DNA of 18,492 bases, taken from the IMG/VR virus record IMGVR_UViG_3300048058_000019; one strand, written 5' to 3'. Shown here one piece after another: positions 2,686 to 18,424 of this stretch. Made by a program: the position numbers and the translations under genes. The stretch comes from a virus. Lineage: Duplodnaviria; Heunggongvirae; Uroviricota; Caudoviricetes. The notes below the pieces were generated by a model, which worked only from the letters and a program-made list of their open reading frames with translations, was not told the origin of the DNA and made no database searches. The stretch's first letter is position 1; every line of letters starts with the position of its first letter.

Positions 2686-2686
2686 C

Positions 2687-3837: not shown

Positions 3838-3839
3838 GG

Positions 3840-4340: not shown

Positions 4341-4357
4341 GTCGTATCCTCCATGCC

Positions 4358-4477
4358 TCAGAAAAGTAAAAGCTTCAAAGTAGTTAAGACTACTGCCGCA
4401 ATGCCAAGGTCAATCAAGATGATCTTCCAGTTGTCTCTCTCGCAGGGATCGACGTCATCGAGCTCCCCGTCTTCCAT
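4358..4477 (-). CDS. acidic-N, hydrophobic-C membrane peptide (39 aa)
   Basis: AAAGGAG RBS; MEDGELDDVDPCERDNWKIILIDLGIAAVVLTTLKLLLF. Confidence 0.65.
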   Translation of the reverse strand: MEDGELDDVDPCERDNWKIILIDLGIAAVVLTTLKLLLF

Positions 4478-4487
4478 CTCCTTTCTC

Positions 4488-5090
4488 CTATCGAAGGGTC
4501 ATTTGATTGAGGGCCGCATCGCCGGTTAGCAACATAGCCAACACGAAAGCGTGGCCCATCTTGCGTTTCGGATCGTTCAGGACTTGGGTGAGTGTCTTGT
4601 TCATTGCCCCATAGTCGTAACCGTCGAAGTCCCGCAGGACGATCAATGGCTCGGTGTTGTAGGCTTGAACAAGGCGGTTCCACCCGTTCGTTTTCTTGAC
4701 CGCTTCAGCGTAGAGGGGAGCGTAAATCTGCTTCCGGGCGTCGATGTAACCCAGCTTGTTGCCTTCCCACCAGCTGTACTTCGGTACTGCCCCTCTTCCC
4801 ATCGGGTAACGGTGAGCGAACTGATCCCCCCAGCCCTTCTCGGCCCAAACCCAGTAAGCCGGGGTTGGGTCGCCGTTCTGGTCGGCGTGTTGGGCGTAAA
4901 CCTTGGCGAACTGCCAAGCGTTCTCCATGTTAAGACTGACCTTCCCGTCATAAAGCGGGCAAGGTCCCACATGGAAGGGACTCAGGTCCCGTTGCCAGTC
5001 GCCATTGGCCTTGCTCGTGGTATTGACCACAAGCCCGTTGGTCCCCAGGACCTTCGTGTACATGTTCACAACCCGAATCTGAGCTGCCAT
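4488..5090 (-). CDS. conserved 200-aa protein, DUF6939-like and possibly NADAR-related
   Basis: AGGAGG RBS; motifs NTTS..LSPF..NMENAWQFAKV..ARKQIYAPLY..LRDFDG..MGHAFVL; family assignment from memory. Confidence 0.6.
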   Translation of the reverse strand: MAAQIRVVNMYTKVLGTNGLVVNTTSKANGDWQRDLSPFHVGPCPLYDGKVSLNMENAWQFAKVYAQHADQNGDPTPAYWVWAEKGWGDQFAHRYPMGRGAVPKYSWWEGNKLGYIDARKQIYAPLYAEAVKKTNGWNRLVQAYNTEPLIVLRDFDGYDYGAMNKTLTQVLNDPKRKMGHAFVLAMLLTGDAALNQMTLR

Positions 5091-5109
5091 TCACACCTCC
5101 TCAAAAGAG

Positions 5110-5214
5110 TTAGCTGACGAAGTAGATCCCAAAGGTCATAACGGCCCAAACAACAACCGCGCCAGTCCAAAAACCAGCGCCAAACGACGCTGCGATTTCC
5201 TGCTTCACTTTCAT
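5110..5214 (-). CDS. membrane peptide (34 aa)
   Basis: MKVKQEIAASFGAGFWTGAVVVWAVMTFGIYFVS; ATGA overlap. Confidence 0.7.
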   Translation of the reverse strand: MKVKQEIAASFGAGFWTGAVVVWAVMTFGIYFVS

Positions 5215-5418
5215 TTCTCAACCCTCGTATTCTTCATCTTCTTTTTGAGATCCTCGAGATAGCGAATGTGGTCGATGTACCAGCCTCCCTCTAAGGAGCC
5301 AGGTACCTTAATGGAAAGCTCGATTTGCCGCTCCTTAGCTGCGACGATAGCGTTCTGAACGCAATCCCATAATCATCTCAGCATCGACATCATCGACCAC
5401 AAAATCGAAGTGGATCAA
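5211..5418 (-). pseudogene. ~68-aa gene interrupted by a +1 frameshift (error, pseudogene or recoding)
   Basis: GGAGG plus TTG (TTGA overlap) gives MIHFDFVVDDVDAEMIM; DCVQNAIVAA...KMKNTRVEK continues in another frame after the GGG run at 5366-5368 and ends in an ATGA overlap; span is 208 nt = 3n+1. Confidence 0.6.
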
Positions 5419-5750
5419 AACGACCTCCCAACCTCCTGCTTGAGCTCTTCAAAGCGGCGTTTCATCGCCTCTCGTTTCCCTGAAGGGACACGATCCCAAG
5501 TAGCCCGAACCTGCCAGTCGGTGGCCTGTGTCATTGGGTACATCCTGCGTGGAATGATGCGAAGACTGTCGTAGACTGGATCGAAAATCGTGAGGTGGTC
5601 CTCAGTCGCCTCTGCACAATAAGAGGCTTCATAGGCCCAACTCATGTTCATTTTGGTGAGAACAGGGCCGCCAGGATATTCAGTTTCTTCATTCACAATG
5701 CCCTTGCAGATGACCCAATCACCGGCTTCGATTTCGTCGTCTTTTGGCAT
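5415..5750 (-). CDS. hypothetical protein (111 aa)
   Basis: AAAGGA RBS; IEAGDWVICK start suggests a small beta-barrel. Confidence 0.75.
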   Translation of the reverse strand: MPKDDEIEAGDWVICKGIVNEETEYPGGPVLTKMNMSWAYEASYCAEATEDHLTIFDPVYDSLRIIPRRMYPMTQATDWQVRATWDRVPSGKREAMKRRFEELKQEVGRSF

Positions 5751-6021
5751 TGGGTTTTCCTTTCTTCTGTTCGATTTCGGTGGCCTTCAGGGCCTCAAAA
5801 AGCTTATTGAAGTCCTCGGCTTCCAAGACGAACTTCCAGTGACCGTGCCCCATGAACTGGTCGTACCAGCGAAGAGCCTTCTTATTTAGGGTTAAAACGG
5901 TCTCAATGGCTTTATTCCTCCTGGAGGATTGGGCCTCCTTAGCATCTCGTTCCGCCCAAAGCTGCTTGAGGTGTTTAGCCACCGCTCTGTCGGCGGGATC
6001 GAGTTTGATCTTCTTCTTCAT
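5719..6021 (-). CDS. basic hypothetical protein (100 aa)
   Basis: ATGA coupling, operon orientation. Confidence 0.75.
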   Translation of the reverse strand: MKKKIKLDPADRAVAKHLKQLWAERDAKEAQSSRRNKAIETVLTLNKKALRWYDQFMGHGHWKFVLEAEDFNKLFEALKATEIEQKKGKPNAKRRRNRSR

Positions 6022-6224
6022 TTGACCACCGAGAAAAGAGTCCTGTGATGAGTGGGAATGAACGTCCAGTAGGTCGCCCCGAAGCGCCTGGGGTTGTCGA
6101 TTGCCTCGCGGGTAAGCTGGACGAACATCTTCTCTTCCCTGTCCTGGTCAAATGCCTCGTGGCGCTTCATCCGACCGATGATCGCGTCGACCGTCTCATG
6201 GAGTGCCTGCTTGATCATGCTCAT
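6018..6224 (-). CDS. hypothetical protein (68 aa)
   Basis: GGAGGAG RBS, ATGA coupling. Confidence 0.75.
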   Translation of the reverse strand: MSMIKQALHETVDAIIGRMKRHEAFDQDREEKMFVQLTREAIDNPRRFGATYWTFIPTHHRTLFSVVK

Positions 6225-6664
6225 CTTCTCTCCTCCACTCGAATGTCCAAATGTCTTCCCTTAACGAGGTCGATGGCAACAGTGGCGCGCTGTTTGGGTT
6301 CGTAAAGCGCGTCCCATCCCTCCTGCGTGAACCGGGTCGCAAAACCAGTTGCGTGGAGGAGGTGCTTCATCGCCTTGTAGAGCACCTGTGTCTGCTCCTT
6401 CCAACAAGCATTGTCGTGCTTGCCGTCGTCGTGAGCGCAGATGTGGCACTTCGGGCCCTTACTCTTGTGGGGTACGTCCAAATATCCTTCCCAACGCCAA
6501 GCGTCCTTGTGGCCGACATCCTCCTTCTTCAGGACGCCCGTAGAAATCGCATCGCGGCAACCGGGGCAAAGGATCTTCTCCCCAAATTCCTGCCGTTGTG
6601 CGAGAAGACGCTCCGGGGTGTCATCCCAACAAATTCTGCAATGAAAGCATTGAGCTCGTTCCAT
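6221..6664 (-). CDS. Cys/His-rich putative Zn-binding protein (147 aa)
   Basis: CFHCRIC, CPGC and CHICAH..H..C motifs; TAATG coupling. Confidence 0.75.
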   Translation of the reverse strand: MERAQCFHCRICWDDTPERLLAQRQEFGEKILCPGCRDAISTGVLKKEDVGHKDAWRWEGYLDVPHKSKGPKCHICAHDDGKHDNACWKEQTQVLYKAMKHLLHATGFATRFTQEGWDALYEPKQRATVAIDLVKGRHLDIRVEERR

Positions 6665-6909
6665 TAACGCACCACCTCATCTTCATCCACTTGATGGGGA
6701 CGACTCCATTCAACATTCACCATCACACCATCCAGCTCGCCAACCCACCAATGGTTGTGGCTCACCCAATGATCAATATTGTGTTTGTCTCTCGAGACTG
6801 GATGATTCCCCTTGCACTTGATGGGTTCAGACCCAATCTGGAGCTCAGCAGGGCAGATTTCGATTTCTGGTCCTTCGTCCATGTCACTTAAGCTTTCATG
6901 TGGGGACAA
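6664..6909 (-). CDS. hypothetical protein (81 aa)
   Basis: Operon orientation, coupled to both neighbours. Confidence 0.65.
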   Translation of the reverse strand: MSPHESLSDMDEGPEIEICPAELQIGSEPIKCKGNHPVSRDKHNIDHWVSHNHWWVGELDGVMVNVEWSRPHQVDEDEVVR

Positions 6910-7151
6910 ACGAGAGTGTTGTATTCGCGAGGGAAGTCCAGCCCGTCTGTCTGCCGTACCCGAGCAGGTCGCTTCGCCTCTTCCACCGTCTTCGGATCGA
7001 AGCGCACAAAGATGTGTGCAATGCCGTCAGACGAGGAAATGTCGTAAACCAGCCCGTTGTCTCCCTCGCTGGCATGGAGGTGTTGCTTCTGGCCATCAGA
7101 CCAATAAAGGTCCTTGACTGCTTGGACGGTGTCGCCAATATGAACTTGCAT
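6888..7151 (-). CDS. hypothetical protein, SH3/KOW-like start (87 aa)
   Basis: Start re-assigned to MQVHIGDTVQAV after GAGGAGG. Confidence 0.75.
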   Translation of the reverse strand: MQVHIGDTVQAVKDLYWSDGQKQHLHASEGDNGLVYDISSSDGIAHIFVRFDPKTVEEAKRPARVRQTDGLDFPREYNTLVCPHMKA

Positions 7152-7152
7152 C

Positions 7153-7335
7153 TTAATCCTCCTCAACTTGAATTTCTGCGTAACCCTTCTCTTTGAGTTC
7201 CCGGTTGGGGTAATGAATATCACCACAGACGAGGATTTGAGCGACACTGAGGTCCCGGTTCTGTGCCCCTGTCACGATTACAGGAAGATCCGGGTCCGCA
7301 CCGCGAAGAGCATCCAGGATTTCACCGACTGTCAT
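7153..7335 (-). CDS. small phage protein with MTVxE(I/L)xxxL motif (60 aa)
   Basis: AGGAG RBS; MTVGEILDALRGADPDLPVIV. Confidence 0.75.
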   Translation of the reverse strand: MTVGEILDALRGADPDLPVIVTGAQNRDLSVAQILVCGDIHYPNRELKEKGYAEIQVEED

Positions 7336-7337
7336 CT

Positions 7338-7700
7338 TCACTCTCCTAGACCAATGATTAGTGCATTGTCCTTGAATGGGACAATCTTGTATCGTCCGTA
7401 ACTGGAAAGCCGGAAGGTCCATTGCCTACCCTTACGACTCTCAAGTTCATATTCATCATTTGCAATAAGTTTAACGTCCCCTGCTCCGTATCCGTCCTTC
7501 AACTCTCCATTGAAGTCCTGATAGCTGAGTGGGTGATCCTCAGTCGGCACCGCCAAGAAGCGCTGTCCCTTCTTGGGGAGCGCGTGTTTGGGGATCGCCC
7601 ACGAAGCCATCGCCCGAGAGGGGTCTGCAGGGATCTCAAGGCGAAGATCCCAATGCAGCCCCGCCCTCTTTGCCGCGTGTTCCTGAATCGTGAATCTCAT
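7338..7700 (-). CDS. stand-alone LigD-type DNA 3'-phosphoesterase (PE domain, 120 aa)
   Basis: FTIQEH..HWDLRLE..SWAIPK..LAVPTEDHPLSY.DF.G....GYGAG matches the LigD PE signature including the metal- and phosphate-binding H, H, D, R, H, Y; TAATG coupling. Confidence 0.9.
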   Translation of the reverse strand: MRFTIQEHAAKRAGLHWDLRLEIPADPSRAMASWAIPKHALPKKGQRFLAVPTEDHPLSYQDFNGELKDGYGAGDVKLIANDEYELESRKGRQWTFRLSSYGRYKIVPFKDNALIIGLGE

Positions 7701-7831
7701 TAGTGTGAGTGGGGAATAAGAGAAGCGATGTACATACCAGCAATCAAACCCAGAGCAAATCCGAAGGCAATCGCCATCCAGAAGCTCGTCAGAGCCGCTG
7801 CTCCGGTCCGTCTTTCGTAGGTGATCTTCAC
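7700..7831 (-). CDS. membrane peptide (43 aa)
   Basis: MKITYERRTGAAALTSFWMAIAFGFALGLIAGMYIASLIPHSH; GTGA and TAATG overlaps. Confidence 0.7.
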   Translation of the reverse strand: MKITYERRTGAAALTSFWMAIAFGFALGLIAGMYIASLIPHSH

Positions 7832-8229
7832 TTGGCTTCCTTCTTCCACCAATAGTCAACCGCGAGGTTGACAACGACCTTGGCGTTCTGGTCAAGACCC
7901 TTCCTATACGAGGAGACGAGCTTCCACGGCCCTTTCTGCTTACACCATTGGCGTCGGTTGGACCGCCAACCAGGAATGGCTTCTCCGTGAACATCGGCGT
8001 AGCTCACTCCATCCGAAGCCACGTAACGGAAGCGCCTTCCACGCCCGACCTGAATCATCAAGACCACAAACGGTCTAGCATGAGGAAGAGCCAGGTCAAC
8101 GACCTCATCGTCCTTGATGCCGATGGTCGCAACCGCCTGCGCCAACCAGCCGCCGTCAACGACAAAGCGCTCTCCGTATTGACGGGTCTTGACCTCGTTC
8201 TCCACAAACGACTTAACCTTGAGCTTCAT
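7828..8229 (-). CDS. hypothetical protein (133 aa)
   Basis: Start re-assigned to MKLKVKSF after GAGGAGG. Confidence 0.75.
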   Translation of the reverse strand: MKLKVKSFVENEVKTRQYGERFVVDGGWLAQAVATIGIKDDEVVDLALPHARPFVVLMIQVGRGRRFRYVASDGVSYADVHGEAIPGWRSNRRQWCKQKGPWKLVSSYRKGLDQNAKVVVNLAVDYWWKKEAK

Positions 8230-8479
8230 CTGCCCTCCTCTTGATGAACGCCTCGTACTGCGCCAAGAAGTCCTTGAGTTCGCCAAATTGGAGAGGATCT
8301 GTGTCCTCTGGCATGGATACGAGAGCCTCTCGCAGATCGTCGGGCGTGATTCCGTGCTTCATGGCGACAACAAAGAATTCGTCGCTGCCTTCCTTGACTC
8401 CTTCCATGTCAGTGAGGAGTCTGCCCACTGCCTCGAGCCACGGAGGCGGGACTTTCTTCTCTAACTCTTCGTCTTGCAT
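8213..8479 (-). CDS. acidic hypothetical protein (88 aa)
   Basis: AAGGAG RBS, TAATG coupling. Confidence 0.75.
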   Translation of the reverse strand: MQDEELEKKVPPPWLEAVGRLLTDMEGVKEGSDEFFVVAMKHGITPDDLREALVSMPEDTDPLQFGELKDFLAQYEAFIKRRADEAQG

Positions 8480-8622
8480 TAGATCTCCTTGATCTCCAGG
8501 ATCCTCACTTGGCCGTGCTTCTCGATCAGGATTCGACGGCAGATCGACGTGTCAAGACATTCGATCAAGGCGAGTTTCTCCTCGCCCTTCTCGTTCTCGT
8601 AGCGAGCCTTAAAGCGTGTCAT
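8479..8622 (-). CDS. small hypothetical protein (47 aa)
   Basis: MTRFKARYENEKGEEKLALIECLDTSICRRILIEKHGQVRILEIKEI; overlaps at both ends. Confidence 0.7.
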   Translation of the reverse strand: MTRFKARYENEKGEEKLALIECLDTSICRRILIEKHGQVRILEIKEI

Positions 8623-8921
8623 GCCTGCGGCCCTGCTTTCGTCGGGTTTTCACTGAGCGGGTGATGCTCAACTCCATGCAGCGTGTAGTGGAAGAGGCCC
8701 TCTAACTCCTGGGCCTTCTCCTCTGCTGCCTCCATGATCAGTTCGAAGATTTTCAAGGCGTCGGCCTCGGTGTAACCGTAAGGGACGTGGACGTGAACCT
8801 CTCCGTGGGGTACAACTCTCCCCGGAGGAGGCTTGGGGATGCTCGTCCTCACCTCGTGCGCGTGGGTGGTGGTGGCTGAGAGAGCGACCGTCCCCGCAAT
8901 GAACGCCCTCCGTGTAAGCAT
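8619..8921 (-). CDS. His-rich protein with twin-arginine (Tat)-like signal (100 aa)
   Basis: MLTRRAFIAGTVALSATTTHA|HE; AAGGAG RBS. Confidence 0.7.
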   Translation of the reverse strand: MLTRRAFIAGTVALSATTTHAHEVRTSIPKPPPGRVVPHGEVHVHVPYGYTEADALKIFELIMEAAEEKAQELEGLFHYTLHGVEHHPLSENPTKAGPQA

Positions 8922-8935
8922 GAAATGCTCCTTCC

Positions 8936-9394
8936 TTATTTGGGGTTGAACAGTCTCGTGATCTGATCGAAGTAATGAACCATCTGCATGACAAGATCTG
9001 CGGCCTCGCCGATCTTGGCTTCGTCGCCCACAGCGAGGAGAGTTTTTTCCTCGACGTTGTAGTAAGCCGCCCCACCGTAACCAGCGTCGTTCATGAGGCC
9101 GACCGTCAGCTTGGACTCATCCAGGTGACGCTCGCCACCTGCCCAGACGGTGGCTCCGATTCGGACCCACACCTTCACCGGTTGGCCATAGAGGAAGACC
9201 CGGCCGTACGGACCGCGTTTCGCGGCATTGCCGTCAATCAGACGGCGGTCGATCTCTTTCGCTAAGCGGTAGTTGATGTTCTTCTTGTGTTCACCCAGCC
9301 GCTGACGACGTTTCGCCTTACGTCTCTCGAGTCGCTGTTGCGCGTACTTCTCTTCCATCCTTTGATGGAATAGAAGGATTCTGTTCTCCTCCAT
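8936..9394 (-). CDS. hypothetical protein (152 aa)
   Basis: TGATG coupling; charged N-terminal helix. Confidence 0.8.
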   Translation of the reverse strand: MEENRILLFHQRMEEKYAQQRLERRKAKRRQRLGEHKKNINYRLAKEIDRRLIDGNAAKRGPYGRVFLYGQPVKVWVRIGATVWAGGERHLDESKLTVGLMNDAGYGGAAYYNVEEKTLLAVGDEAKIGEAADLVMQMVHYFDQITRLFNPK

Positions 9395-9759
9395 CAGGCC
9401 CCCTTCATCAAGTTCATTACAACAAACAGCTCATCGATGAACTTGTCGTCGTTGAGCTGGTCCCGGTCCTTCAAGCCGAAAAGGAATTCGGGTTTCTTCA
9501 TGAAAGACGTCCTGTTGTCCTCGATGTTCCAAGAGTCGCTCACACGGCTCTGGTAAATCGAAATCGTCCGTTTCTCCCTCATGAAGATGGCTTGGCCACA
9601 CTCGAAGTGAGCCACGGCCCCGTCACCGTAATCCTTTTCGGCCGGTTCCGAACCCTTCTCCATAATGAAGTCGTGTTCATGGATCAGCCGATGGGCCAAA
9701 CGGGATTCAGCCAGAAAGTTAGCGAATGCCATTCCCCTGAGATTGGTTGCCGTTTTCAC
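9394..9759 (-). CDS. hypothetical protein (up to 121 aa)
   Basis: GGAGG RBS plus GTGA overlap. Confidence 0.75.
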   Translation of the reverse strand: MKTATNLRGMAFANFLAESRLAHRLIHEHDFIMEKGSEPAEKDYGDGAVAHFECGQAIFMREKRTISIYQSRVSDSWNIEDNRTSFMKKPEFLFGLKDRDQLNDDKFIDELFVVMNLMKGA

Positions 9760-10070
9760 AGAACCTCCTTGATTTTCTCGAGGATCTTAAGATCCTGATA
9801 TCCGTGACCAGAATCGAAGACTAGAGCGGGTTTGGGAGCTGAGATGTCTCCGTGGTTGTCACCGAACAGAACAGCGAAGTGGTTGTCTTCCGGCATTGGA
9901 GCAACGCCCAGCTTCTTGATGCTAATCTCTCCCCGACTTAAGGGGGTGCTGGGGAGAATCTTCCAACCAGCCTTCTTGAGCTTGGCGGCAACCTGCTGTG
10001 ATGAGAGACCTGTTGTCATGATTGCTGATCCGTAGAATCCACAACCCTGAGAAATGAGTAACGTCTTCAT
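9756..10070 (-). CDS. hypothetical protein (104 aa)
   Basis: GAGGAGGTGTGAATG initiation region. Confidence 0.8.
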   Translation of the reverse strand: MKTLLISQGCGFYGSAIMTTGLSSQQVAAKLKKAGWKILPSTPLSRGEISIKKLGVAPMPEDNHFAVLFGDNHGDISAPKPALVFDSGHGYQDLKILEKIKEVL

Positions 10071-10460
10071 TCACACCTCCTCACATTTTGAACAAAGATC
10101 CCAGCCCTCGTTGATAAGAATGCCGCAGATCGCACAAAGCGTTCCCCGCTCGAGCGACCTGCCGTCACGTCCAACCAACATCGTTCGAACCCCGTCATAC
10201 TTCTCCTGAACGACCGGAGGAGTGTTGATCTCATCGATGAGAAGCGGGGCAGCCAACTTCCAGTCTCGCTTCAGGACTACAGCATGCCTCCAGAAGTAGG
10301 GCAGGTCCTTTTCGAACTTGCGCCTGAGGCGCAAACGCACGGCTTCCAAGCCCATCTTGGAAGTCAGGTAGAGATGGGGAATCGTGTCATATGACACGCC
10401 CACCTCATGGAATGCAGTGAGCATTTCTTGCTCACTGTCAGACATGAGCTTGGTCTTCAT
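10071..10460 (-). CDS. hypothetical protein with ligase motif-I-like KYDGVR and C-terminal CxxC..CxxC (129 aa)
   Basis: VQEKYDGVRTMLV; CAIC and CSKC; TAATG coupling. Confidence 0.75.
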   Translation of the reverse strand: MKTKLMSDSEQEMLTAFHEVGVSYDTIPHLYLTSKMGLEAVRLRLRRKFEKDLPYFWRHAVVLKRDWKLAAPLLIDEINTPPVVQEKYDGVRTMLVGRDGRSLERGTLCAICGILINEGWDLCSKCEEV

Positions 10461-10987
10461 TAAATCCCTCCCACAAAGAAGCTTTTCAAAACCTTCTCGG
10501 CGTCAACAGCCACGAGCCTTATCGAACCGAACATCGGTTTCTTGACCAACCACTCGACCAACTCGCCTCTTCGCCACCTCGCGATTGGATACTTGCCCGC
10601 TCTGTTGGGCATCTCGTGTTCTCCACACACGTCCTTGTAATCGACCCTGCTCCAGACCTCGCCGTTGATGTAATAGGCGAGGCCGGTAGGGAGGATTACC
10701 TCGACGGTGGGAATCACTGAAGGGTCTCCCGGATTCGCCTCCTTGTGGGCCTGGCTCTTGGCGGCTCCCAGGTAATTCAGCTCGTGGATCCGTGCAACGG
10801 GATCCCACTTAGTCGCCTCACCCTCGACCAGCTTCCAGCGCCAGACCAACATGTGAAGGTTGGGAAACAGCCCTCGATCGACCTCCCTTTGAATCCTGTA
10901 GTGAAGGTGGGAGCCGTCGTGGGGCTTAAAGCGTGCATACCGAACATCGTGCAGAAAAATCCGTCGATGCCCTCTTCCTCTGCTCAT
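10460..10987 (-). CDS. hypothetical protein, first gene of leftward operon (175 aa)
   Basis: Start re-assigned to MSRGRGHRR after GAGGAGG. Confidence 0.8.
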   Translation of the reverse strand: MSRGRGHRRIFLHDVRYARFKPHDGSHLHYRIQREVDRGLFPNLHMLVWRWKLVEGEATKWDPVARIHELNYLGAAKSQAHKEANPGDPSVIPTVEVILPTGLAYYINGEVWSRVDYKDVCGEHEMPNRAGKYPIARWRRGELVEWLVKKPMFGSIRLVAVDAEKVLKSFFVGGI

Positions 10988-11098
10988 TCGACCTCCTCTC
11001 AGAGTTGAGTTCCCGCGCCCTCGCCAAGCACACAGACGGGGCGGCACCGCCAGTCCATCACGCGCGCCAAGCGGCCGTCAATCACCGGTTAGCTGTGC

Positions 11099-11128
11099 AA
11101 TATAACGCTGTATTTCAAAGGTATGCAA
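11099..11128 (-). promoter_or_regulatory. sigma70-like promoter for the leftward operon
   Basis: TTGCAT-N18-TATATT on - strand, about 110 nt upstream of ATG 10987, at the divergence point. Confidence 0.45.
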
Positions 11129-11302
11129 ATTATCGGCCGAATGATGCGAATTTCTACCGCTATTGCCACAGGGTTCTTCTTCACATATGCGGTTGAGGGA
11201 GCCATCAGTTGGTGGTTGTGGGGAGTCCTGGCGGTCCTGACAGCAGCAATATTCACTTTAACTCTCTGGTATGACATACGCAAAGGTCGAGTATGTCAAT
11301 AG
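11123..11302 (+). CDS. two-helix membrane protein (59 aa)
   Basis: MQIIGRMMRISTAIATGFFFTYAVEGAISWWLWGVLAVLTAAIFTLTLWYDIRKGRVCQ. Confidence 0.6.
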   Translation: MQIIGRMMRISTAIATGFFFTYAVEGAISWWLWGVLAVLTAAIFTLTLWYDIRKGRVCQ

Positions 11303-11391
11303 TTCTAATCTGGCTTCTCTTGATTGGCTTCATTCTGGGACTGACCTGGCTCATGGACTGGTTCATCTTCAGACGTTACAAGAAGGGTTGA
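11293..11391 (+). CDS. single-helix membrane peptide (32 aa)
   Basis: MSIVLIWLLLIGFILGLTWLMDWFIFRRYKKG; hydrophobic helix with basic tail; overlaps previous stop. Confidence 0.65.
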   Translation: MSIVLIWLLLIGFILGLTWLMDWFIFRRYKKG

Positions 11392-11397
11392 AGCTAA

Positions 11398-11604
11398 GTG
11401 ATTGAGCGGTCCGCTCAGTTTAGGAGATTGGCCCCGATACTTGCACACGGTCGTGCGCCCACGTACATTGCTTCTGGGGGAGTGTGGTACATAAAAGTAA
11501 TAGCAACCAACACTCCTTACCGCAAGATTCCCTTGGCGATTTACGATGAGGAGGGCCGGGAGAGAAGGCGTGCGGCTTGGAATGCCGCACCTGAATTTTT
11601 ATGA
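11398..11604 (+). CDS. small hypothetical protein (start uncertain)
   Basis: Ends in ATGA overlap; internal YIKVIA resembles the array motif; true start may be GTG 11482. Confidence 0.4.
   Translation: MIERSAQFRRLAPILAHGRAPTYIASGGVWYIKVIATNTPYRKIPLAIYDEEGRERRRAAWNAAPEFL
11441..11469 (+). promoter_or_regulatory. sigma70-like promoter upstream of the micro-gene array
   Basis: TTGCAC-N17-TACATT. Confidence 0.45.
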
Positions 11605-11762
11605 AAGTATCAGTTAAAGGCGAATTTTATCCCGTGATTAAACATACCAACCACAAGTTAGTGTGGAAGAGAATAAAGGGGAACTTCCTTATCCGTGCTA
11701 GCAGCTCCAGTGAACCCTTCTTCGAGCCTAATCCTCCTCCAACCTACGCGTTAGCAATATGA
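11601..11762 (+). CDS. small hypothetical protein (53 aa)
   Basis: MKVSVKGEFYP...YALAI; ATGA overlaps at both ends. Confidence 0.6.
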   Translation: MKVSVKGEFYPVIKHTNHKLVWKRIKGNFLIRASSSSEPFFEPNPPPTYALAI

Positions 11763-11878
11763 ACTTCATAATTATTGGCCCCTGTATCATAAAACCCTTC
11801 CTGTCAGCGTTTTATAAGGGTAAGTTTATTGCTCATACCGAAGTCTTCATGAGAGGGGAGCTCAAGGGAGTATTATGA
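11759..11878 (+). CDS. MNF-array member 1 (39 aa)
   Basis: MNFIIIGPCIIKPFLSAFYKGKFIAHTEVFMRGELKGVL; ATGA overlaps. Confidence 0.65.
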   Translation: MNFIIIGPCIIKPFLSAFYKGKFIAHTEVFMRGELKGVL

Positions 11879-12195
11879 ACTTCTTTGATATCTTGAGCGA
11901 CTGGCTCGAAGAAGAGGGCTTCGAGGAAGAGGGCTTCCAACTTATAGTTGGGCCACCCAGCTTGGGCTCCAAAGAGAAGACGCAAATACTTGTTCATCGT
12001 TGCACTCATCCTTCTCAGTGGGGAATGTTCTTAGAGGAAGGACGTGCTGGGGTTGCTCTGGCCTGGAATTATGAGATCACTCGAGAGACACCAGATGACT
12101 TTGAGATCACTCCTCGCAAGATTCTACCCCTGTCCGATCCAAAATTCTTCTCTAAACTCAAAAGACGCCTCAACACTCACAAGTGTAAGTCATGA
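11875..12195 (+). CDS. MNF-array member 2 (106 aa)
   Basis: MNFFDILS...LPLSDPKFFSKLKRRL; AAGGGAG RBS; ATGA overlaps. Confidence 0.75.
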   Translation: MNFFDILSDWLEEEGFEEEGFQLIVGPPSLGSKEKTQILVHRCTHPSQWGMFLEEGRAGVALAWNYEITRETPDDFEITPRKILPLSDPKFFSKLKRRLNTHKCKS

Positions 12196-12323
12196 ACTTT
12201 GAGATAATTGCCCCAAGGAGATTTAAAAGTAAGCACCCAGCCTATTGGGGAGTGAGGGAAGCTTGGATGCTCAAGAAAGAGTACAGTAAAGTCAGGCGTC
12301 TAGTGAGGGAGTTCTCCAAATGA
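12192..12323 (+). CDS. MNF-array member 3 (43 aa, basic)
   Basis: MNFEIIAPRRFKSKHPAYWGVREAWMLKKEYSKVRRLVREFSK; ATGA overlaps. Confidence 0.7.
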   Translation: MNFEIIAPRRFKSKHPAYWGVREAWMLKKEYSKVRRLVREFSK

Positions 12324-12529
12324 CCGAAACAGGAATCCCCTGCTTTAAGTGTTCCAAGAGATCAGGAACCGATTGTCCGGGCCGTAAGAAAGATGAGGCG
12401 ACCCTCTGCGACCCTTGTTTTAGGGTCAAGATGCTGGTCGATAGGGGCTCTGAGGCCCAGCACCTCCTCAACCAGTTGAATGAGGGGACTCTATCTCTCA
12501 AGGACTTCTATTACTTGGTCAAGGACTAA
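12320..12529 (+). CDS. small Cys-rich putative Zn-finger protein (69 aa)
   Basis: CFKC..C..CDPC; ATGA and TAATG overlaps. Confidence 0.7.
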   Translation: MTETGIPCFKCSKRSGTDCPGRKKDEATLCDPCFRVKMLVDRGSEAQHLLNQLNEGTLSLKDFYYLVKD

Positions 12530-12636
12530 TGAATTTTAAAGTTATTGCCCCTAGGACCATCAAGTTGCATCATTGTATCCTAGGAATCCTCTATAGCCTC
12601 AAGAGGGATACCAAAAGACATCATTGGGTTGTATGA
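12529..12636 (+). CDS. MNF-array member 4 (35 aa)
   Basis: MNFKVIAPRTIKLHHCILGILYSLKRDTKRHHWVV. Confidence 0.65.
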   Translation: MNFKVIAPRTIKLHHCILGILYSLKRDTKRHHWVV

Positions 12637-12830
12637 ACTTTAAAGTCATTGTCCCATTTAAGAAGGTCCGCTTCTCACGTGTCCGTTTCGATAAGAAGAG
12701 GGTGGACACAGGACCGCTTGTTAGAGCCCGCTGGAATGGCTCAACAATTCCTCATGAGATTATTTATTGGGAGCACACTAGGCGTTTGATTTGGAGGGGA
12801 TCAGATGGGTGGAGGGATTGTGAACTTTAA
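12633..12830 (+). CDS. MNF-array member 5 (65 aa)
   Basis: MNFKVIVPFKKVRF...WRDCEL; ATGA overlap. Confidence 0.7.
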   Translation: MNFKVIVPFKKVRFSRVRFDKKRVDTGPLVRARWNGSTIPHEIIYWEHTRRLIWRGSDGWRDCEL

Positions 12831-12984
12831 GAAAGTCATATCTTCACACCTGTTCCAAGAATGGCAAAAGAACAGAAAGAAGAGGGGGCTCTTTTTTACA
12901 ACCATAATAGGTGTCCCTAGGATCCCTCACCTGTTCCCTTATCAGCTTACTGTACTGAAAACCCTTAATCGAAAATTCCAGTAA
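12820..12984 (+). CDS. MNF-array member 6 (54 aa, GTG start)
   Basis: GGAGG then GTGAACTTTAAG; MNFKKVISSHLFQEWQK...LNRKFQ. Confidence 0.55.
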   Translation: MNFKKVISSHLFQEWQKNRKKRGLFFTTIIGVPRIPHLFPYQLTVLKTLNRKFQ

Positions 12985-13342
12985 GGGCTAGCATCCACAC
13001 CGCAAGACATAGGATTAAGAACCAAAAGAGGCAGGCTAGACACCCCGCACATCCAAGGTAATCTTTATTCATGTTGCTCATACTTTAAGCTCTTAGAAAG
13101 TAAACTAAGCTGGGGAGAGGGGAACCCCCATTTGAGATATGTGTTGGGAGGGGGATCCCCCACACGTGACCGGCCCCCCTCACCCACGCAATTATTTCCA
13201 CGCGCGGGCTCTTTAGGACCTAGTTCCCCTCTCGCCCAAAGACGTCCTTAAGGCACGTCCCTATCAGGGCCAACACCGAAGCAGCAAATCCAAAGCCCAT
13301 GTAAATCATGACTTATTTACTTCAAGATGAGAGGGGGGCTTT

Positions 13343-13453
13343 ATGAAGCGATACGCCATCCAATATAAAATAGTCGCCTATCTATCGGATTTGGGAAGTA
13401 GTGAGGAGTTCCCCTCCTGTGTCATGTACATCGGTGTTCCGCACGCGGAATGA
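13343..13453 (+). CDS. possible small protein (36 aa)
   Basis: GAGGGGGG upstream; MKRYAIQYKIVAYLSDLGSSEEFPSCVMYIGVPHAE. Confidence 0.35.
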   Translation: MKRYAIQYKIVAYLSDLGSSEEFPSCVMYIGVPHAE

Positions 13454-13586
13454 TTATCGGGATGCTTATATGATCTTTGTGGGGTACAAATGATATGTGC
13501 AAAGCCGAGAGCGTGAGGCAGCGGACAAAGACCAAGGAGTAGACGCGACGACGGCCACTTTAGTACAGTCGAAGCTTATATAATTC

Positions 13587-13724
13587 ATGGACGGCGTAGA
13601 AATGTTCTGGCGGAGTCGAGAGGCTCCAGAGGGATTCTTCTTCATTTGGTTATTCTTACTGGCGTTGGCTATATTCCTGCTATTTTGGCGAGGGGATAAA
13701 GCATCAAGCTCGGATAAAGAATAG
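13587..13724 (+). CDS. single-helix membrane peptide (40-45 aa)
   Basis: ...GFFFIWLFLLALAIFLLFWRGDK...; TATAAT at 13579-13584 suggests the second ATG (13602) may be used. Confidence 0.55.
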   Translation: MDGVEMFWRSREAPEGFFFIWLFLLALAIFLLFWRGDKASSSDKE

Positions 13725-13760
13725 GGCTTCCCTCCCCCGCTATCTTCCGCTTTTTAAAAA

Positions 13761-13806
13761 GCGAGTTTCAGGGTTTTTTAAGAGGTTCCCTTGTAGCCTC
13801 TACCTC
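13761..13806. repeat. 46-bp direct repeat, copy 1
   Basis: 39/46 ungapped identity to 15031-15076. Confidence 0.85.
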
Positions 13807-13864
13807 CGGTATTGTGTGTGAGGGCTTTCCTCACCTTGGGCCCTCCATAGAGGACCAAAAGTGA

Positions 13865-13889
13865 GGCTCCCCCTTGCTCGAGGGGAGCC
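13865..13889 (-). terminator. probable intrinsic terminator of the 13909-14277 gene
   Basis: GGCTCCCC/GGGGAGCC 8-bp stem 20 nt after the stop, followed on - by TCACTTTT. Confidence 0.55.
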
Positions 13890-13908
13890 CCGTTGGTGCC
13901 TTGGGCGC

Positions 13909-14277
13909 TTACTCTTCGGAGCCCTTGGCCTGGGCGGCCTTGAAGGCGTCGAAGTCGGCCTTGTCCTGGGCCTTCTTCGCCTTCCGGGCGTCGTTGCGGT
14001 GCTCGAGGCAGACCTTCACCTGGAAGAGGTCCGAGGTGAAAACCTTCCGGCGCTGGTCGCAACCCTCGTGGGTGCACTCGATCTCCACGAACTGCTTCTT
14101 GGCGACGTCGTCCCAGGCGAGCGTCCCCTCGATGAAGACCCGGTTCTTCTCGCGAAGCTGGGCTTCCGTGACCCGGCGACCCGGCTTGCCCTCCTTGGCG
14201 ACGGCCTTGCGGATCTTGTTCTTCTGCTCGTCGGTCAGGTGGGTCATTCCGGCCAGGGTCTCTTCCACGTTCGGCAT
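13909..14277 (-). CDS. Lys/Ala-rich protein with Cx4C..Cx2H motif, paralogue A (122 aa)
   Basis: GGAGG RBS; almost all third positions G/C; about 55% identical to 17981-18424 by manual alignment. Confidence 0.9.
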   Translation of the reverse strand: MPNVEETLAGMTHLTDEQKNKIRKAVAKEGKPGRRVTEAQLREKNRVFIEGTLAWDDVAKKQFVEIECTHEGCDQRRKVFTSDLFQVKVCLEHRNDARKAKKAQDKADFDAFKAAQAKGSEE

Positions 14278-14354
14278 CTCAAACCTCCATGCTTTTACCT
14301 TGCCCTCAAGTCCCGCCGCGCCTCACGGCGCTCAAAGCGGTCTCGCGGCCCCCG

Positions 14355-14387
14355 CAGCCTAGCAGGCGCGCCGAGCCGCCGCAACCA
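14355..14387 (-). promoter_or_regulatory. extended -10 promoter, proximal copy
   Basis: TTGCGG-N17-TAGGCT with TG at the extended position; 28/33 identical to 14464-14496. Confidence 0.55.
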
Positions 14388-14463
14388 CCGGCTGAAACCC
14401 CGGCCCTTCGGGGCGGGTGAGCGGCGGCGCGGCCTTGGAGCGCGTGACAGAGCGGGACGCCAC

Positions 14464-14496
14464 CAGCCTAGCAGCCGCGCCCAGCCATCGTAACCA
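14464..14496 (-). promoter_or_regulatory. extended -10 promoter, distal copy
   Basis: TTACGA-N17-TAGGCT with extended TG; direct repeat of 14355-14387. Confidence 0.5.
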
Positions 14497-15030
14497 TCGC
14501 TTGGCTGTATGAATATGACACAAGAGAGTTTAATTAAGCATGTGCGGAATCCTAACAAATTGATTCCCGTCCCATGTGCACATGCCACAGGGCCGCTACA
14601 ATAAGAACCGCCATTGATTATAATTGCGCACGTGTTCGCGATGCATATGACACAGCAGGACTGTATTAAAAAGCGCGCGCCATCTAATGGCGGCCTGGAG
14701 ACGCGATGCATATGCTATAGCGCGTCAAAGGTCTATGTGTGGTACCGTTTAATGTGCGATATCGCGACCAGAGACCCGCGCTTCGGACGGCTAAACACGA
14801 ATCGCGGATCGGCGATCTGGGGGCACTGGGATCTTCTACATTAAGGCGGCGTATCGGCTCAATATATGCATCCCCCTCGTTCTGTCCAATTACCAGGTGG
14901 AAATACCGGCGGATATGACGCATCAAGACTTTCCCATCAAGCTAAGTGTATTGACAGGATCTCCCTCCGCCTCAGCTATCTTCCACCTGACCGCCGAGGT
15001 CAGCCTTACCCCTGGCTTCGCTCGGCGGCG

Positions 15031-15076
15031 GCGAGTTTCGCGGTTTTTAAAGAGGTTCCGCTAAAGCCTCTACCTC
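15031..15076. repeat. 46-bp direct repeat, copy 2
   Basis: 39/46 identity to 13761-13806; conserved AGAGGTT-N7-AGCCTCT. Confidence 0.85.
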
Positions 15077-15083
15077 TAGTTGT

Positions 15084-15179
15084 CTATTGACCCACTAACC
15101 CTAGGAACGCCAGGATCGCCAGGATAAACCAAAGGAAATCGAGATCCTTGCTCGATGCCTTGGCCTTCATCCTTGCCAT
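15084..15179 (-). CDS. 31-aa hydrophobic peptide
   Basis: AGGAGGG 6 nt before ATG; MARMKAKASSKDLDFLWFILAILAFLGLVGQ. Confidence 0.65.
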   Translation of the reverse strand: MARMKAKASSKDLDFLWFILAILAFLGLVGQ

Positions 15180-15229
15180 CAAGCGCCCTCCTAAAAGGGA
15201 CTCGAATTTTAAGCTCCAAGCCATAAACC

Positions 15230-16230
15230 CCCGGCATGCTTGACGCAAGCATGTTGTTCCAGTTAGGTGTGGCTGCGTCCGACCACTGCTTGGAGCAAGA
15301 TTTAGGACCCCCTGCCTTCAGCGCTCTGCGTCAGTTCTCGCCATCTCGACCGTCTGGTCTACTGGGCGTGATCTGCTCGGTCGCCTAACGGGAGGGGGTC
15401 AAATTTTTGCCCCCCTGTGAATCAGATCCCCAAAAGGAGGGGCTCTGAGTCCGGGAGGACTTTGGTCGTTTCCGTCACTTGTTTATACTCGGTTGGCGGA
15501 GAGCAACGAGTTAAACTTCCTTGCCGACCTTACCGAGTGTGTGCCGCAAAGCGGCGTTCAGCGTGTGTTACGCTGCTTTTTGATGTGAGTGCTTGCAACG
15601 ACGGCGAGCACGCCAGCCTTTGAAGGCGGCAAAGCCCCCGGTTGCTAAGATGAAGAGACCCACGAGAGCCTCCCCGATCCCGAAACAGAGACAGGCGAGT
15701 GCGGTTTCCATGAACGTTCTCCTCTCTGGATTTTTGTCAGAGACCCAGTACGTGGTTGTCTGAGGTTCCTGGTCTTAACCAGCATCAAGGGCTGCCTACT
15801 GCTTAGTCACAGATCGGCACCTAGAACCTTGAAGCCCGAGACAACCACCCAACAGGCCTCGCAGCGCAGGAACCTCTTTGCCCCTTGGGGCTTGAGGTGT
15901 GTTACGCCACATTGAGGGCTCACGCCCCACACAGGGGCTTAATTGAGCAAGTTTTACTGCCGGTCAGCGCTTAGCGCATAACTGGCCCTTTCCTCTTTGG
16001 AAGCCCGCCCAAAGCGAGGACGGACGCCCAAAGAGGGGCCCTCATCCGAGGGCCCCGGATCCAGAGAGAGGAGGTGCCTGTGCTTTCTAGCCCTTAGCGG
16101 GCAAGGCCTTTACTGCCCCCCACAGGGGAGGCGCGGCCTCTTTCGTGCGCCGCTATCCCACCAGGGCGGGCAAGCGCCCGCCACCATCCGTTAGCTGCGC
16201 TGGTCTCCATCTCGACTCCCCGCAGGGAGC
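15230..16230 (+). ncRNA. candidate large structured non-coding RNA (family not recognised; ends approximate)
   Basis: No credible ORF; more than 12 stems of 6-10 bp; G-U wobbles mostly valid on +; GGGA tetraloop; two crossed 10-bp helices. Confidence 0.5.
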
Positions 16231-16285
16231 CGGGAAGGAGAGAGGCCCGAGCACCAGACTCGGACCTCAACTCCCCGGTGCTTGG

Positions 16286-16804
16286 TTAGTTCAGCGGACC
16301 GTCCGGGATGTCACCTCGCCGCAAGCGCGGCGGGTTGAGCCCGGTGACCGGGAGCTGGGGCGAAACTCCCTCGGCTTCGGGCGGAAGCGCGCCCATACCT
16401 GCGAGCAAGGCGAGGATCGGGTTCTGCCCGCCTTCGGCCTTCATGAAGGCCGCGTGCTCCTTCTTCCAGGTCGCGATCGCCTCGGGGCTGAGGTCGATCT
16501 CGGTGGGGAGCTCACCCCGCTGGAGCTGGCTGTACTTCTCGTGCAGCAGCTCGAGGGCCGGGACGGCCTTGCCCAGCAGGTCGCCGATGAGCGCCTTGGT
16601 GTCGTGGACTCCCGCTTCCACGAACTGGGGCTCGATGACCTGGATGTCCTTGAGCTTCAAGGCCATCGCCATCGCGACCTTGGACGTGATGGTGAGGGCG
16701 GTCATGCCCTCGCGGAGAGTGCTCTTCTCCTTGTGGCTGAACGCCAGACCACAGGTGCACTCGGGGGCGAAACAGGCCGGATTCGGCTTGGCTTTCTTCT
16801 TCAC
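16286..16804 (-). CDS. hypothetical protein with N-terminal Cys cluster (172 aa)
   Basis: AAGGAGG 6 nt before GTG 16804; CFAPECTC; strong GC3 bias. Confidence 0.85.
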   Translation of the reverse strand: MKKKAKPNPACFAPECTCGLAFSHKEKSTLREGMTALTITSKVAMAMALKLKDIQVIEPQFVEAGVHDTKALIGDLLGKAVPALELLHEKYSQLQRGELPTEIDLSPEAIATWKKEHAAFMKAEGGQNPILALLAGMGALPPEAEGVSPQLPVTGLNPPRLRRGDIPDGPLN

Positions 16805-16955
16805 CAAGCACCTCCTTGAAAGAGAGTCGAAATACCTGACCACCTGGACCTTGGTGGGTTACCAAGACCAAGGTGGTGGCTCCCCGCAGGAGCCACGGCG
16901 CGGGCCTGTGCCATATCCCATCAGGATGGCCAAGCCCGCGCCACCACCGCTGTGC

Positions 16956-17177
16956 TTACCGGCGGTTCCTCTCGCCCATGGCGTGTTCGCGGGCACCCCG
17001 CAGCATGGAGCTGTTGAGCTGGATCCGCACGATCCCACGTTCGGCCAGAGCAGGCAGATTTTCTTGGATGAGCCGGTGCATCTTGCCCCGTGCATCTCCA
17101 AGGTCCAGCCTGGCTTTCTCGACGTTGACGGCTTCGCCCATCAACTGGCGCTCTACTTCCTTCATTCGTTCGTCCAC
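16956..17177 (-). CDS. small helical protein (73 aa)
   Basis: GGAGGTGCTTGGTG initiation region identical to that of 16286-16804. Confidence 0.8.
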   Translation of the reverse strand: MDERMKEVERQLMGEAVNVEKARLDLGDARGKMHRLIQENLPALAERGIVRIQLNSSMLRGAREHAMGERNRR

Positions 17178-17237
17178 CAAGCACCTCCATTAAAGAGAAA
17201 CGATCCCAAGTTTGTGTTTCCCCCTCAAGTGTGGTAC

Positions 17238-17420
17238 CTAGAGCCCTTGACCAGCAGCTCTTTCCCTCCGTCCCTCCAGATCCTTGATCTCCTTGGAGAT
17301 CCTCTCAACTTCGGGACTGGCCTTGATGAGCTTCGCCGCTTCAAGGCGACGATAGGCCCCTTCGATCGCCCGGGTGAACCGGACGACGTCCTGCTCCTTC
17401 TGAGTGAGGGTTCCTAACAT
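17238..17420 (-). CDS. small helical or coiled-coil protein (60 aa)
   Basis: GGGAGGT RBS. Confidence 0.75.
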   Translation of the reverse strand: MLGTLTQKEQDVVRFTRAIEGAYRRLEAAKLIKASPEVERISKEIKDLEGRRERAAGQGL

Positions 17421-17484
17421 ATGTCACCTCCCTGAGACGTACCTCACGACTCATATTTTGTGTGGTACGCCTTAGGGAAGCCCC

Positions 17485-17688
17485 CTACTTAAGGGGGAAC
17501 CCCGCCACCTTGTACGTTGCCGCTATAGACCTTAAGCCCATAGCTTGCAAGTAGTAGGTTGCTCGGATAGAGGGCCACCTGTTTCCAAGGGCCCTCAGTT
17601 CACGGGCCTTCTCCAATGCCCACTTTCTGGCAAGGTATAGACCCCTTGCCTGTCCGTGATTGAAGGCAACAGCTTCTCCTACCAGCAC
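17485..17688 (-). CDS. small basic hypothetical protein (67 aa)
   Basis: AAAGGAGG before GTG 17688. Confidence 0.6.
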   Translation of the reverse strand: MLVGEAVAFNHGQARGLYLARKWALEKARELRALGNRWPSIRATYYLQAMGLRSIAATYKVAGFPLK

Positions 17689-17936
17689 GGTGCCTCCTTT
17701 CTCCCTAGGAGCTCGGATCACGAGCGCCTAGAGAGGCCCCCGATCGGGGGCCAGGTAGAAACTAGACGGCCGGAGGCGCGATTGAGGCTGCCCAGAGCAC
17801 GGACTCGCGTGGGCTCCAGCGCGAAGGTTAGGCTAGTTCACAAGCATCTCCTTCATGTGTTAGAGTTGGCCGTGGGATGAAAGATAGCGCTATCTCCACT
17901 CGAGCCCCCGGTGTGTTACAGGAGCTTGAGTGGAGA

Positions 17937-17980: not shown

Positions 17981-18424
17981 TTACTCCTCGACTTCGGCCT
18001 CGCCCTCGGGCTCGGCCTCGGCCTCGGGCTCCGCCGTGGTCGTGGCCTCGGCGGCGCGCTGCTTCTTGAAGTCCTCGAAGGCCACCTTGTCGGCGTCCTT
18101 CTTGGCCTTCTTGGCGGCAGCCCGGTGGTCCAGACACACCTTGACCTGGAAGAGGTCGCTGGTGTAGACGTCCCGCTTGGTGCTGCAGCCGGAGTGCGTG
18201 CAGACGATCGTGACCTGCTGCTTGCCTGCCGCCTCGTCCCAGCGGAGGCTGTCCTTGACGACGTGGGCGTACTTGCCCTCGATCGTCTCCTTGGAGATCC
18301 GGCGGCCCTTGCCCGCCTTCTCCTTGGCCACCGCCTTGCGGATCGTCTCCTTCTGAGCGTCCGTGAGGTGGCTCATTCCCGCGAGCGTCTTCTCGACCTC
18401 GGGGGAGCTCTTGAGATCGGCCAT
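17981..18424 (-). CDS. Lys/Ala-rich protein with Cx4C..Cx2H motif and acidic tail, paralogue B (147 aa)
   Basis: AGGAGG RBS; CTHSGC..TSDLFQVKVCLDH; AEPEAEAEPEGEAEVEE tail; extreme GC3. Confidence 0.9.
   Translation of the reverse strand: MADLKSSPEVEKTLAGMSHLTDAQKETIRKAVAKEKAGKGRRISKETIEGKYAHVVKDSLRWDEAAGKQQVTIVCTHSGCSTKRDVYTSDLFQVKVCLDHRAAAKKAKKDADKVAFEDFKKQRAAEATTTAEPEAEAEPEGEAEVEE

Follow-up and report, generated by a model that had tools for sequence, protein, structure and literature searches.

The 18,492-nucleotide (18.5-kb) stretch of DNA considered here (hereafter the window; IMG/VR record IMGVR_UViG_3300048058_000019) forms the end of a 384,188-bp contig from an uncultured phage in a Joint Genome Institute (JGI) metagenome and contains a chain of very small genes, several of which open with the same short peptide. 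The consensus of this N-terminal tag, as the seven residues that follow the initiating Met, is Asn-Phe-Lys-Ile-Ile-Ala-Pro, and at least three phage genomes encode dozens of small proteins that open with it, mostly unrelated to one another and diverging fast. Selection keeps the tag as amino acids and not as DNA. It may be a portable N-terminal handle for one shared, putative partner, an explanation that, on the sequences, seems to us evenly balanced between right and wrong.

A Tag Conserved as a Peptide

In the window, the pattern RTGAAYTTY occurs six times, always on the plus strand (at 11759, 11875, 12192, 12529, 12633, and 12820), and all six matches are the starts of open reading frames (ORFs); 200 dinucleotide shuffles gave a mean of 1.4 matches and a maximum of 5, so that six was reached in none of them. 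The six-frame translation contains a strict peptide motif, NF[KTREI][IV][IVLF][AGVTI], four times, whereas block shuffles give 0.03. An initial annotation of this DNA had described six ORFs opening with (A/G)TGAA(C/T)TT(C/T), which is borne out, and had asked whether such starts might be no more frequent than in shuffled sequence; they are clearly more frequent. Its claim that all six share one tag holds for four or five of them. The core family, MNFx[IV]I[AGV]P, consists of ORFs 11759, 12192, 12529, and 12633 (29-nucleotide repeat family D1); ORF 12820 has the variant NFKKVIS and is counted as a fifth carrier in variant form, and ORF 11875 belongs to a different family (see below). Two further members of the chain have versions of the motif, N-proximal in ORF 11398 (QFRRLAP) and internal in ORF 11601 (NFLIRA). 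The six matched ORFs are 35–106 residues long, with isoelectric points of 9.5–11.6 in all except ORF 11875 (5.6). Pairwise comparison of their bodies revealed nothing significant, except for ORFs 12192 and 12529, in which the likeness extends past the tag as APRxxKxxH; the bodies are, as first described, unrelated and mostly basic, this pair alone sharing a few residues beyond the tag.

What selection acts on can be read from the codons of 18 tags taken from the window, from a nearby region of the same phage (L024), and from a second phage contig (G002; both are described below). Asn is encoded by AAC in 8 cases and by AAT in 10, Phe by TTC and TTT in 9 each, and every Ile, Ala, and Pro codon is in use. 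Entropy is maximal at third positions, whereas positions 1 and 2 are fixed; the proportion of synonymous differences (pS) is 0.9–1.0, and the ratio of the non-synonymous proportion to it (pN/pS) is 0.1–0.2. A comparison of non-synonymous with synonymous change in these codons had been proposed in the initial annotation, and its result agrees with the claim made there that synonymous positions vary (AAC/AAT, TTC/TTT, and GTT/GTC) while the peptide is kept. A wider list of 37 candidate starts from four sequences, about 31 of which are convincing, gives the same codon picture. Since Asn2 and Phe3 had belonged to the search pattern, they were tested separately: ten ORF starts match xx[KTREI][IV][IVLF][AGV]P, and all ten have Asn-Phe at residues 2 and 3. 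When at most about 110 kb of distinct DNA was translated in all six frames, the strict motif directly followed a start codon in 18 of 19 occurrences and never lay deep in a protein. Conservation spans residues 2–8, and beyond residue 8 the 37 candidate starts have no conserved position.

Selection must act on the peptide because the synonymous sites are saturated while the residues are fixed, and the freedom of the third positions means that no DNA or RNA element, be it a recombination joint, a site bound by a protein, or an RNA motif, can be the cause of the conservation. The three-base periodicity likewise argues against a DNA-binding site. Judged from this same pattern, the tagged starts are shown to be translated.

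Relatives and Turnover of the Array

Using an exhaustive HMMER search with ORF 12633, a 72-residue homologue that also opens with MNFKVIAP (P0127; E 4.5e-6) was found on a 5.1-kb contig, L068, from the same ENA assembly as the homologue of ORF 11875. This contig is syntenic with the window: its minus strand has homologues of the window genes 9394–9759 and 10071–10460, and its plus strand has orthologues of ORFs 11123, 11293, 11398, 11601, 11759, 12529, 12633, and 12820 (identities in the table). It lacks ORFs 11875 and 12320 and has, between the shared ends, about eight extra tagged ORFs and a 198-residue gene. Altogether, L068 contains 16 tag motifs in 3.3 kb, 12 of which directly follow ATG or GTG and are chained by ATGA or GTGA overlaps. 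The bodies are under purifying selection and belong to real genes, since orthologue pairs between the window and L068 have a pS of 0.43–0.88 versus a pN of 0.22–0.48. The families differ in what they keep. In that of ORF 11759, the tag MNFIIIG is the same in both genomes and the remainder cannot be aligned; in that of ORF 11398, the motif lies at residues 7–13 behind a conserved extension and has decayed in the window (QFRRLAP versus NFKILAP); and in that of ORF 11601, an internal NF(L/I)I(R/H)A is present in both.

Paralogue pairs within L068 (3869/4137, 3420/4000, and 2832/3643) show tandem duplication followed by fast divergence. The content of the array differs between relatives, a comparison that the initial annotation had recommended, and its idea of a "nursery" of new genes receives support from the duplication, fast divergence, gain, and loss seen in L068. 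In addition, at 3643–3894 and 1945–2157 of this contig, the motifs SSNFKIVSL and FLNFHIIARP stand 17–38 residues into longer ORFs with no adjoining start codon; these ORFs are candidates for cassettes fused upstream after loss of the start, or for decaying copies.

The window is also present on a 124.8-kb contig, and five more near-identical contigs (99.98–100%) come from other samples; a rearranged array was seen in none of them. In the same genome, 16–37 kb from the window, the region L024 encodes two ClpS homologues (PF02617). Six tagged ORFs lie beside the clpS genes, among them those at L024 12826, 15539, 16354, 18765, and 18911, and N-proximal variants of the motif in this region include SNFKILG, MLGNFKMTAP, and MSSEKFKIFAP. 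The intervening 30 kb or so has no tags. A tagged 77-residue protein adjoins clpS, and a homologue search with it returned only itself. The two ClpS proteins (L024 12159–12404 and 14076–14390) differ from one another in the pocket region, HDDPKTPMDFV versus NDDDHTYEYV; from an alignment by eye to the E. coli ClpS, we take the former to keep the conserved His and the latter to have Tyr for the gatekeeper Met and Asp for His66.

A scan of IMG/VR with the tag DNA gave one contig with multiple matches, G002 (IMGVR_UViG_3300048496_000010; 31.9 kb, 45% GC), which has at least 10 tagged micro-ORFs at 10015–16134. Compared with about 75 kb of the 384-kb phage, G002 has no protein similarity at E <1e-4. 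It encodes a large terminase, a T4-type portal protein (PF07230), a gp21-type prohead protease (PF03420), and a gp23-type capsid protein (PF07068), and its tag array lies 3–10 kb downstream of the head genes on the same strand; the fragment contains no clpS. The capsid protein has homologues that are 75–88% identical on many contigs of 300–400 kb, and is at most 41% identical to those of the nearest GenBank phages. The 595-kb uncultured phage with GenBank's nearest capsid protein has a single tag match, equal to the control. The other IMG/VR matches to the tag DNA are singletons at about the estimated chance rate, and those inspected fall in unrelated genes; the JGI metagenome collection, which evidently does not hold the window's own record, gave 25 single matches, about the number expected by chance, and no clusters. 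Within the IMG/VR and JGI collections scanned, the tag looks lineage-restricted.

Two explanations for the recurrence of the tag dispense with a role for the peptide. In one, put forward in the initial annotation, the tag would be a recombination joint, about 24 nucleotides of DNA homology used for the gain, loss, and shuffling of cassettes. Array content does differ between the window and L068, the paralogue pairs point to tandem duplication, some tags common to the two are identical at 21–22 of 23–24 nucleotides, and, with a tag opening each cassette, unequal exchange between tags would preserve the reading frames. Yet selection on DNA homology would keep the synonymous sites, and these are saturated; the conservation follows a strict three-base periodicity confined to codon positions 1 and 2, the window tags are only 66–76% identical over 29 nucleotides, and the near-identical contigs from different samples reveal no rearrangement. 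As the cause of the conservation, the joint is hardly credible, and microhomology between tags may assist cassette turnover as a by-product. In the other explanation, the tag is a passive, functionless relic of tandem-duplicate paralogues whose 5' ends diverged last, with which the duplications in L068 and the few residues shared past the tag by ORFs 12192 and 12529 would agree. This we consider very improbable: with tag synonymous sites saturated and bodies unalignable, time alone would have erased the tag, and its consensus is identical in genomes without other detectable similarity.

What the Tag May Do

The combination of a fixed start-proximal peptide, a cargo that is small, mostly basic, and fast-changing, and phages that otherwise look unrelated suggests a constant signal on a variable cargo. 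The tag would then serve as a linear handle for docking, probably in the form of a short beta-strand that stops at the proline, and through it small effector-like proteins, in a changing assortment, would reach a single common partner. The leading candidate for this partner, by analogy, is the prohead core of a T4-type head, an identification that, taken by itself, we regard as doubtful; docking there would put the miniproteins into the capsid, to be delivered together with the DNA. Other possible partners are the ClpS adaptors that the phage itself encodes and a chaperone or protease of the host. A wider proposal, which we advance only tentatively, is that of a new sorting signal in huge, distantly T4-like phages, where one label would send a large, quickly duplicating and diverging stock of miniproteins to one place, either to the prohead, for injection alongside the DNA, or to the phage's ClpS adaptors, for destruction at a set time. 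The arrays would then constitute an evolving take-over or anti-defence arsenal with a common means of delivery.

The comparison with T4 rests on its capsid-targeting sequence (CTS), an N-terminal propeptide of 10 residues by which diverse internal proteins enter the scaffolding core and which the gp21 protease removes by cutting after L/I-x-Glu (PMC9026906, PMC3012670). As in the T4 carriers (IPI, IPII, IPIII, Alt, gp67, and gp68), a short peptide opens small proteins that are otherwise unrelated, mostly basic, and quick to evolve; their genes occupy plastic loci, and it is the peptide that is conserved and not the body (PMC3012670, PMC9026906). For one tag-bearing contig, G002, homologues of gp20, gp21, and gp23 point to a T4-type head. 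No sequence relationship between the two peptides was found, and the tag has 7 residues against the 10 of the CTS; its carriers are encoded in ATGA-coupled micro-gene arrays. The tag would thus work like a CTS without being classed as a member of the CTS family. Of the peptide address tag suggested in the initial annotation on the model of T4, what stands is an N-terminal peptide kept with saturated synonymous sites and common to three phage genomes; the T4-type cleavage site is absent.

Several observations weigh against a docking handle or against the prohead as its partner. The tag ends in Ala-Pro (consensus Ile-Ala-Pro), and the 37 candidate starts have no conserved L/I-x-Glu site after it. 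The carriers number dozens, of 20–77 residues, where T4 has three or four internal proteins of 8–20 kDa. A few family members have the motif 3–27 residues from the start, which means that the exact N-terminal position is not absolute. In the window, the carriers lie among early-looking genes and not among head genes, and neither the window nor L024 has the T4 late-promoter motif TATAAATA, of which G002 has a single copy, about the chance expectation. Tags are missing within 10 kb of the head module in two JGI contigs, L066 and L067, whose capsid proteins are 83–84% identical to that of G002. Finally, Lys-Ile at codons 4 and 5 also fits a known high-yield translation motif (PMC6920384).

This last point leads to a different explanation, in which the tag is a ramp peptide: Met-Asn-Phe-Lys-Ile-Ile would help ribosomes past the first five codons of weakly initiating, coupled micro-ORFs and would have no post-translational role. 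Verma et al. (2019, Nat Commun) found that, in E. coli, yields were highest with Lys or Asn followed by Ile or Tyr at codons 3–4 or 4–5, "regardless of their synonymous codons" (PMC6920384), so conservation of a peptide with free synonymous sites would be expected here too. The tag resembles this motif in its start-proximal position, in its Lys-Ile at codons 4 and 5, and in what would be an action at the level of the peptide or the tRNA: Lys4 and Ile5 each occur in 22 of the 37 candidate starts, about 60% of the tags have Lys4-Ile5, the motif nearly always comes directly after the start codon, and a Shine-Dalgarno core is missing upstream of 13 of 20 tagged genes (hand count). The E. coli effect, however, concerns two residues with many equal alternatives, and here conservation runs through residues 2–8, including Ala-Pro and thus past the codons 3–5 that matter in PMC6920384, with one heptapeptide fixed across three genomes when many other tripeptides would do equally well. 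The tag is limited to micro-gene arrays and absent from the genes that the phage expresses most: those for head proteins (capsid, portal, and scaffold-like), which are highly expressed, start otherwise in G002, L066, and L067. Variants with 3–6 added N-terminal residues keep the motif, and the extension in the orthologues ORF 11398 and s1772 is itself conserved. The initial annotation had, in a similar vein, listed a shared translation-coupling element. Coupling by ATGA turns out to be general (49% of untagged genes also start with NTGA), and Shine-Dalgarno content is neither clearly nor significantly different between called tagged genes (1 of 6) and untagged ones (44 of 87), which counts against a ramp as well; a peptide-level effect on early elongation stays a live rival to docking, although we judge it unlikely.

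Still less probable, in our opinion, is an N-terminal degradation or adaptor tag, by which the miniproteins would be removed by a Clp-type protease or serve as decoys, in the manner of a ClpX N-motif or via ClpS after exposure of Phe3. Its attraction lies in the N-terminal position of the tag and in the two ClpS homologues of the same genome, with tagged or near-tagged genes within about 5 kb of them. ClpS N-degrons have a free N-terminal Phe, Leu, Trp, or Tyr, and, with Met-Asn gone, FKIIAP would suit ClpS well as a ligand. Methionine aminopeptidase leaves Met in place before Asn, however; the primary products open with Met-Asn-Phe, exposure of Phe3 would need an added trimming step, and we know of no enzyme for it here. 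With ClpX degrons, the tag has in common a short N-terminal signal with Lys beside an aliphatic run, as in those of lambda-O (TNTAKILNFGR) and OmpA (MKKTAIAIAV) (PMC12723719), but this likeness is loose and the tag does not fit the published examples. The array of the window is, moreover, some 40 kb from the clpS genes, and clpS is missing from the G002 fragment. Two other classes of N-terminal peptide were considered and rejected: a signal peptide or lipobox, for which the tag is too short and has no Cys, and the leader of a ribosomally synthesized and post-translationally modified peptide, which would need more than seven residues and a maturase, of which there is no sign.

If the tag is indeed a sorting or docking signal, it would single out at once, among the hundreds of anonymous micro-genes that huge phages carry, those using one route, it would provide a seven-residue handle for fishing out the partner, and dozens of fast-evolving miniproteins would come under the T4 "internal protein" principle. 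An array that turns over by duplication, divergence, and loss while retaining its tag bears the mark of a repertoire shaped by an arms race. A translation "starter" peptide would mean instead that a whole lineage makes natural use of an early-elongation effect known so far mainly from reporters.

The Gene Chain and Its Surroundings

The six matched ORFs are part of a ten-gene chain on the plus strand at 11123–12984, divergent from the minus-strand genes that occupy 1–11047. Each gene of the chain is one frame back from the preceding one, and the overlaps are ATGA, except for one TAATG and one of 11 nucleotides; a single fused reading through TGA was rejected since successive ORFs are in different frames. 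The annotated frame is the best of six in 7 of the 10 ORFs, as scored by a codon model trained on the long genes of the same phage with stops unscored. The chain is a real operon of ten translationally coupled micro-genes. Codon usage is heterogeneous within this phage: GC at third positions is 0.65–0.80 in the minus-strand genes (1–11047) versus 0.46–0.67 in the chain, and is about 0.5 in the micro-gene chain (11100–13000) and in the clpS region L024 alike.

Features of the ten-gene chain; s-numbers and P0127 denote relatives on contig L068, and percentages are identities to them.
Feature	Coordinates	Strand	Relatives and remarks
First gene of the chain, untagged 59-residue membrane-type miniprotein	11123–11302	+	Orthologue s1481, 60%
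Untagged hydrophobic 32-residue miniprotein	11293–11391	+	Orthologue s1666, 75%
68-residue protein with decayed tag QFRRLAP at residues 7–13 (nt 11416–11436)	11398–11604	+	Orthologue s1772, 46%, with NFKILAP in the same place
Terminator-like hairpin, then a T-run	11570–11590	+	7 pairs, 6 of them G-C
o0, basic, 53 residues, internal tag-like NFLIRA (nt 11682–11699)	11601–11762	+	Orthologue s2154, with NFIIHA and C-terminal PTYALA
o1, tagged, 39 residues, MNFIIIGP (tag nt 11759–11782)	11759–11878	+	Positional orthologue s2285; MNFIIIG kept, body unalignable
o2, acidic, 106 residues, MNFFDILS	11875–12195	+	DWL/DPxFFxK family; not a core tag carrier
o3, tagged, 43 residues, MNFEIIAP (tag nt 12192–12215)	12192–12323	+	Weak matches to s2475 (N-terminal half) and s2981 (C-terminus)
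oZ, untagged, Cys-rich (CxxC...CxxC), 69 residues	12320–12529	+	Own-frame codon score best of six
o4, tagged, 35 residues, MNFKVIAP (tag nt 12529–12552)	12529–12636	+	Orthologue s2374 (MNFKLIVP), 48%
o5, tagged, 65 residues, MNFKVIVP (tag nt 12633–12656)	12633–12830	+	Homologue P0127 (MNFKVIAP...; E 4.5e-6), 48%
o6, basic, 54 residues, (V/M)NFKKVIS	12820–12984	+	Orthologue s5030, 50%, with ATG start and MNFKKLIS; 86% DNA identity over 36 nt

The hairpin lies within the 3' end of ORF 11398, ten bases 5' of the ATG at 11601, and, from its predicted structure, could be a candidate attenuator dividing the chain into two units. The TGA stop of ORF 11601 falls within the ATGA of the next gene, ORF 11759. 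A codon alignment of ORF 12633 with P0127 gave a pS of 0.80 and a pN of 0.34. For ORF 12820, there is an alternative ATG at 12805; the GTG at 12820 is favoured as the start because the L068 orthologue begins ATG-AAC-TTC and reads Met-Asn-Phe-Lys-Lys-Leu-Ile-Ser.

The single homologue of ORF 11875 is P0002 (52% identity, E 1e-20), which opens with MNLFDILSDWLEEEG (MNLFDILS), and for this reason the N-terminus of ORF 11875 is assigned to the DPxFFxK family and not to the tag family. ORF 11875 contains DILSDWLEEEG and SDPKFFSKL, and P0002 has both motifs (N-terminal ...DWL... and a C-terminal one of the DPxFFxK type). The size and layout are those of this family of small proteins (about 100 residues, N-terminal DWL, C-terminal DPxFFxK(L/I)), and DPCFFEKI is found in its neighbours in L007.

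Scans of the array proteins against PHROGs and Pfam returned no family, a scan of the window against Rfam found nothing, and a tRNA search of it found none. The array DNA has no match among GenBank phages, and IMG/VR protein-pattern searches with ORF 11875 and with a 195-residue neighbour gave no relatives. In the ESM Atlas, ORF 12633 has no usable feature match and a low-confidence model (predicted local distance difference test, pLDDT, 0.41). Sigma-70-like promoter matches are no commoner than in shuffles.

Elsewhere in the window, the minus-strand paralogues 13909–14277 and 17981–18424 encode Lys/Ala-rich proteins with the common motif CTH.GC ... TSDLFQVKVCL.HR, and between the two lies a 2-kb stretch (about 14.7–16.3 kb) with hardly any long ORFs.

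Other genes were seen near the T4-type head modules. On G002, a PhyH/2OG-Fe(II) dioxygenase gene (L014 2406–3068, minus strand) stands between the prohead protease and capsid genes. On L066 (395-kb JGI contig Ga0315336_1000108), a few kb downstream of the head module, 18886–21524 encodes a protein of more than 880 residues with Pfam matches to the major vault protein shoulder domain (PF11978) and, faintly, to Vault_3. A 549-residue protein with a TROVE (Ro60-like) domain is encoded near the head module of L067 (371-kb JGI contig Ga0183687_1000014) at 16240–17889. The large terminases of L066 and L067 contain an intein and LAGLIDADG domains, which that of G002 lacks.

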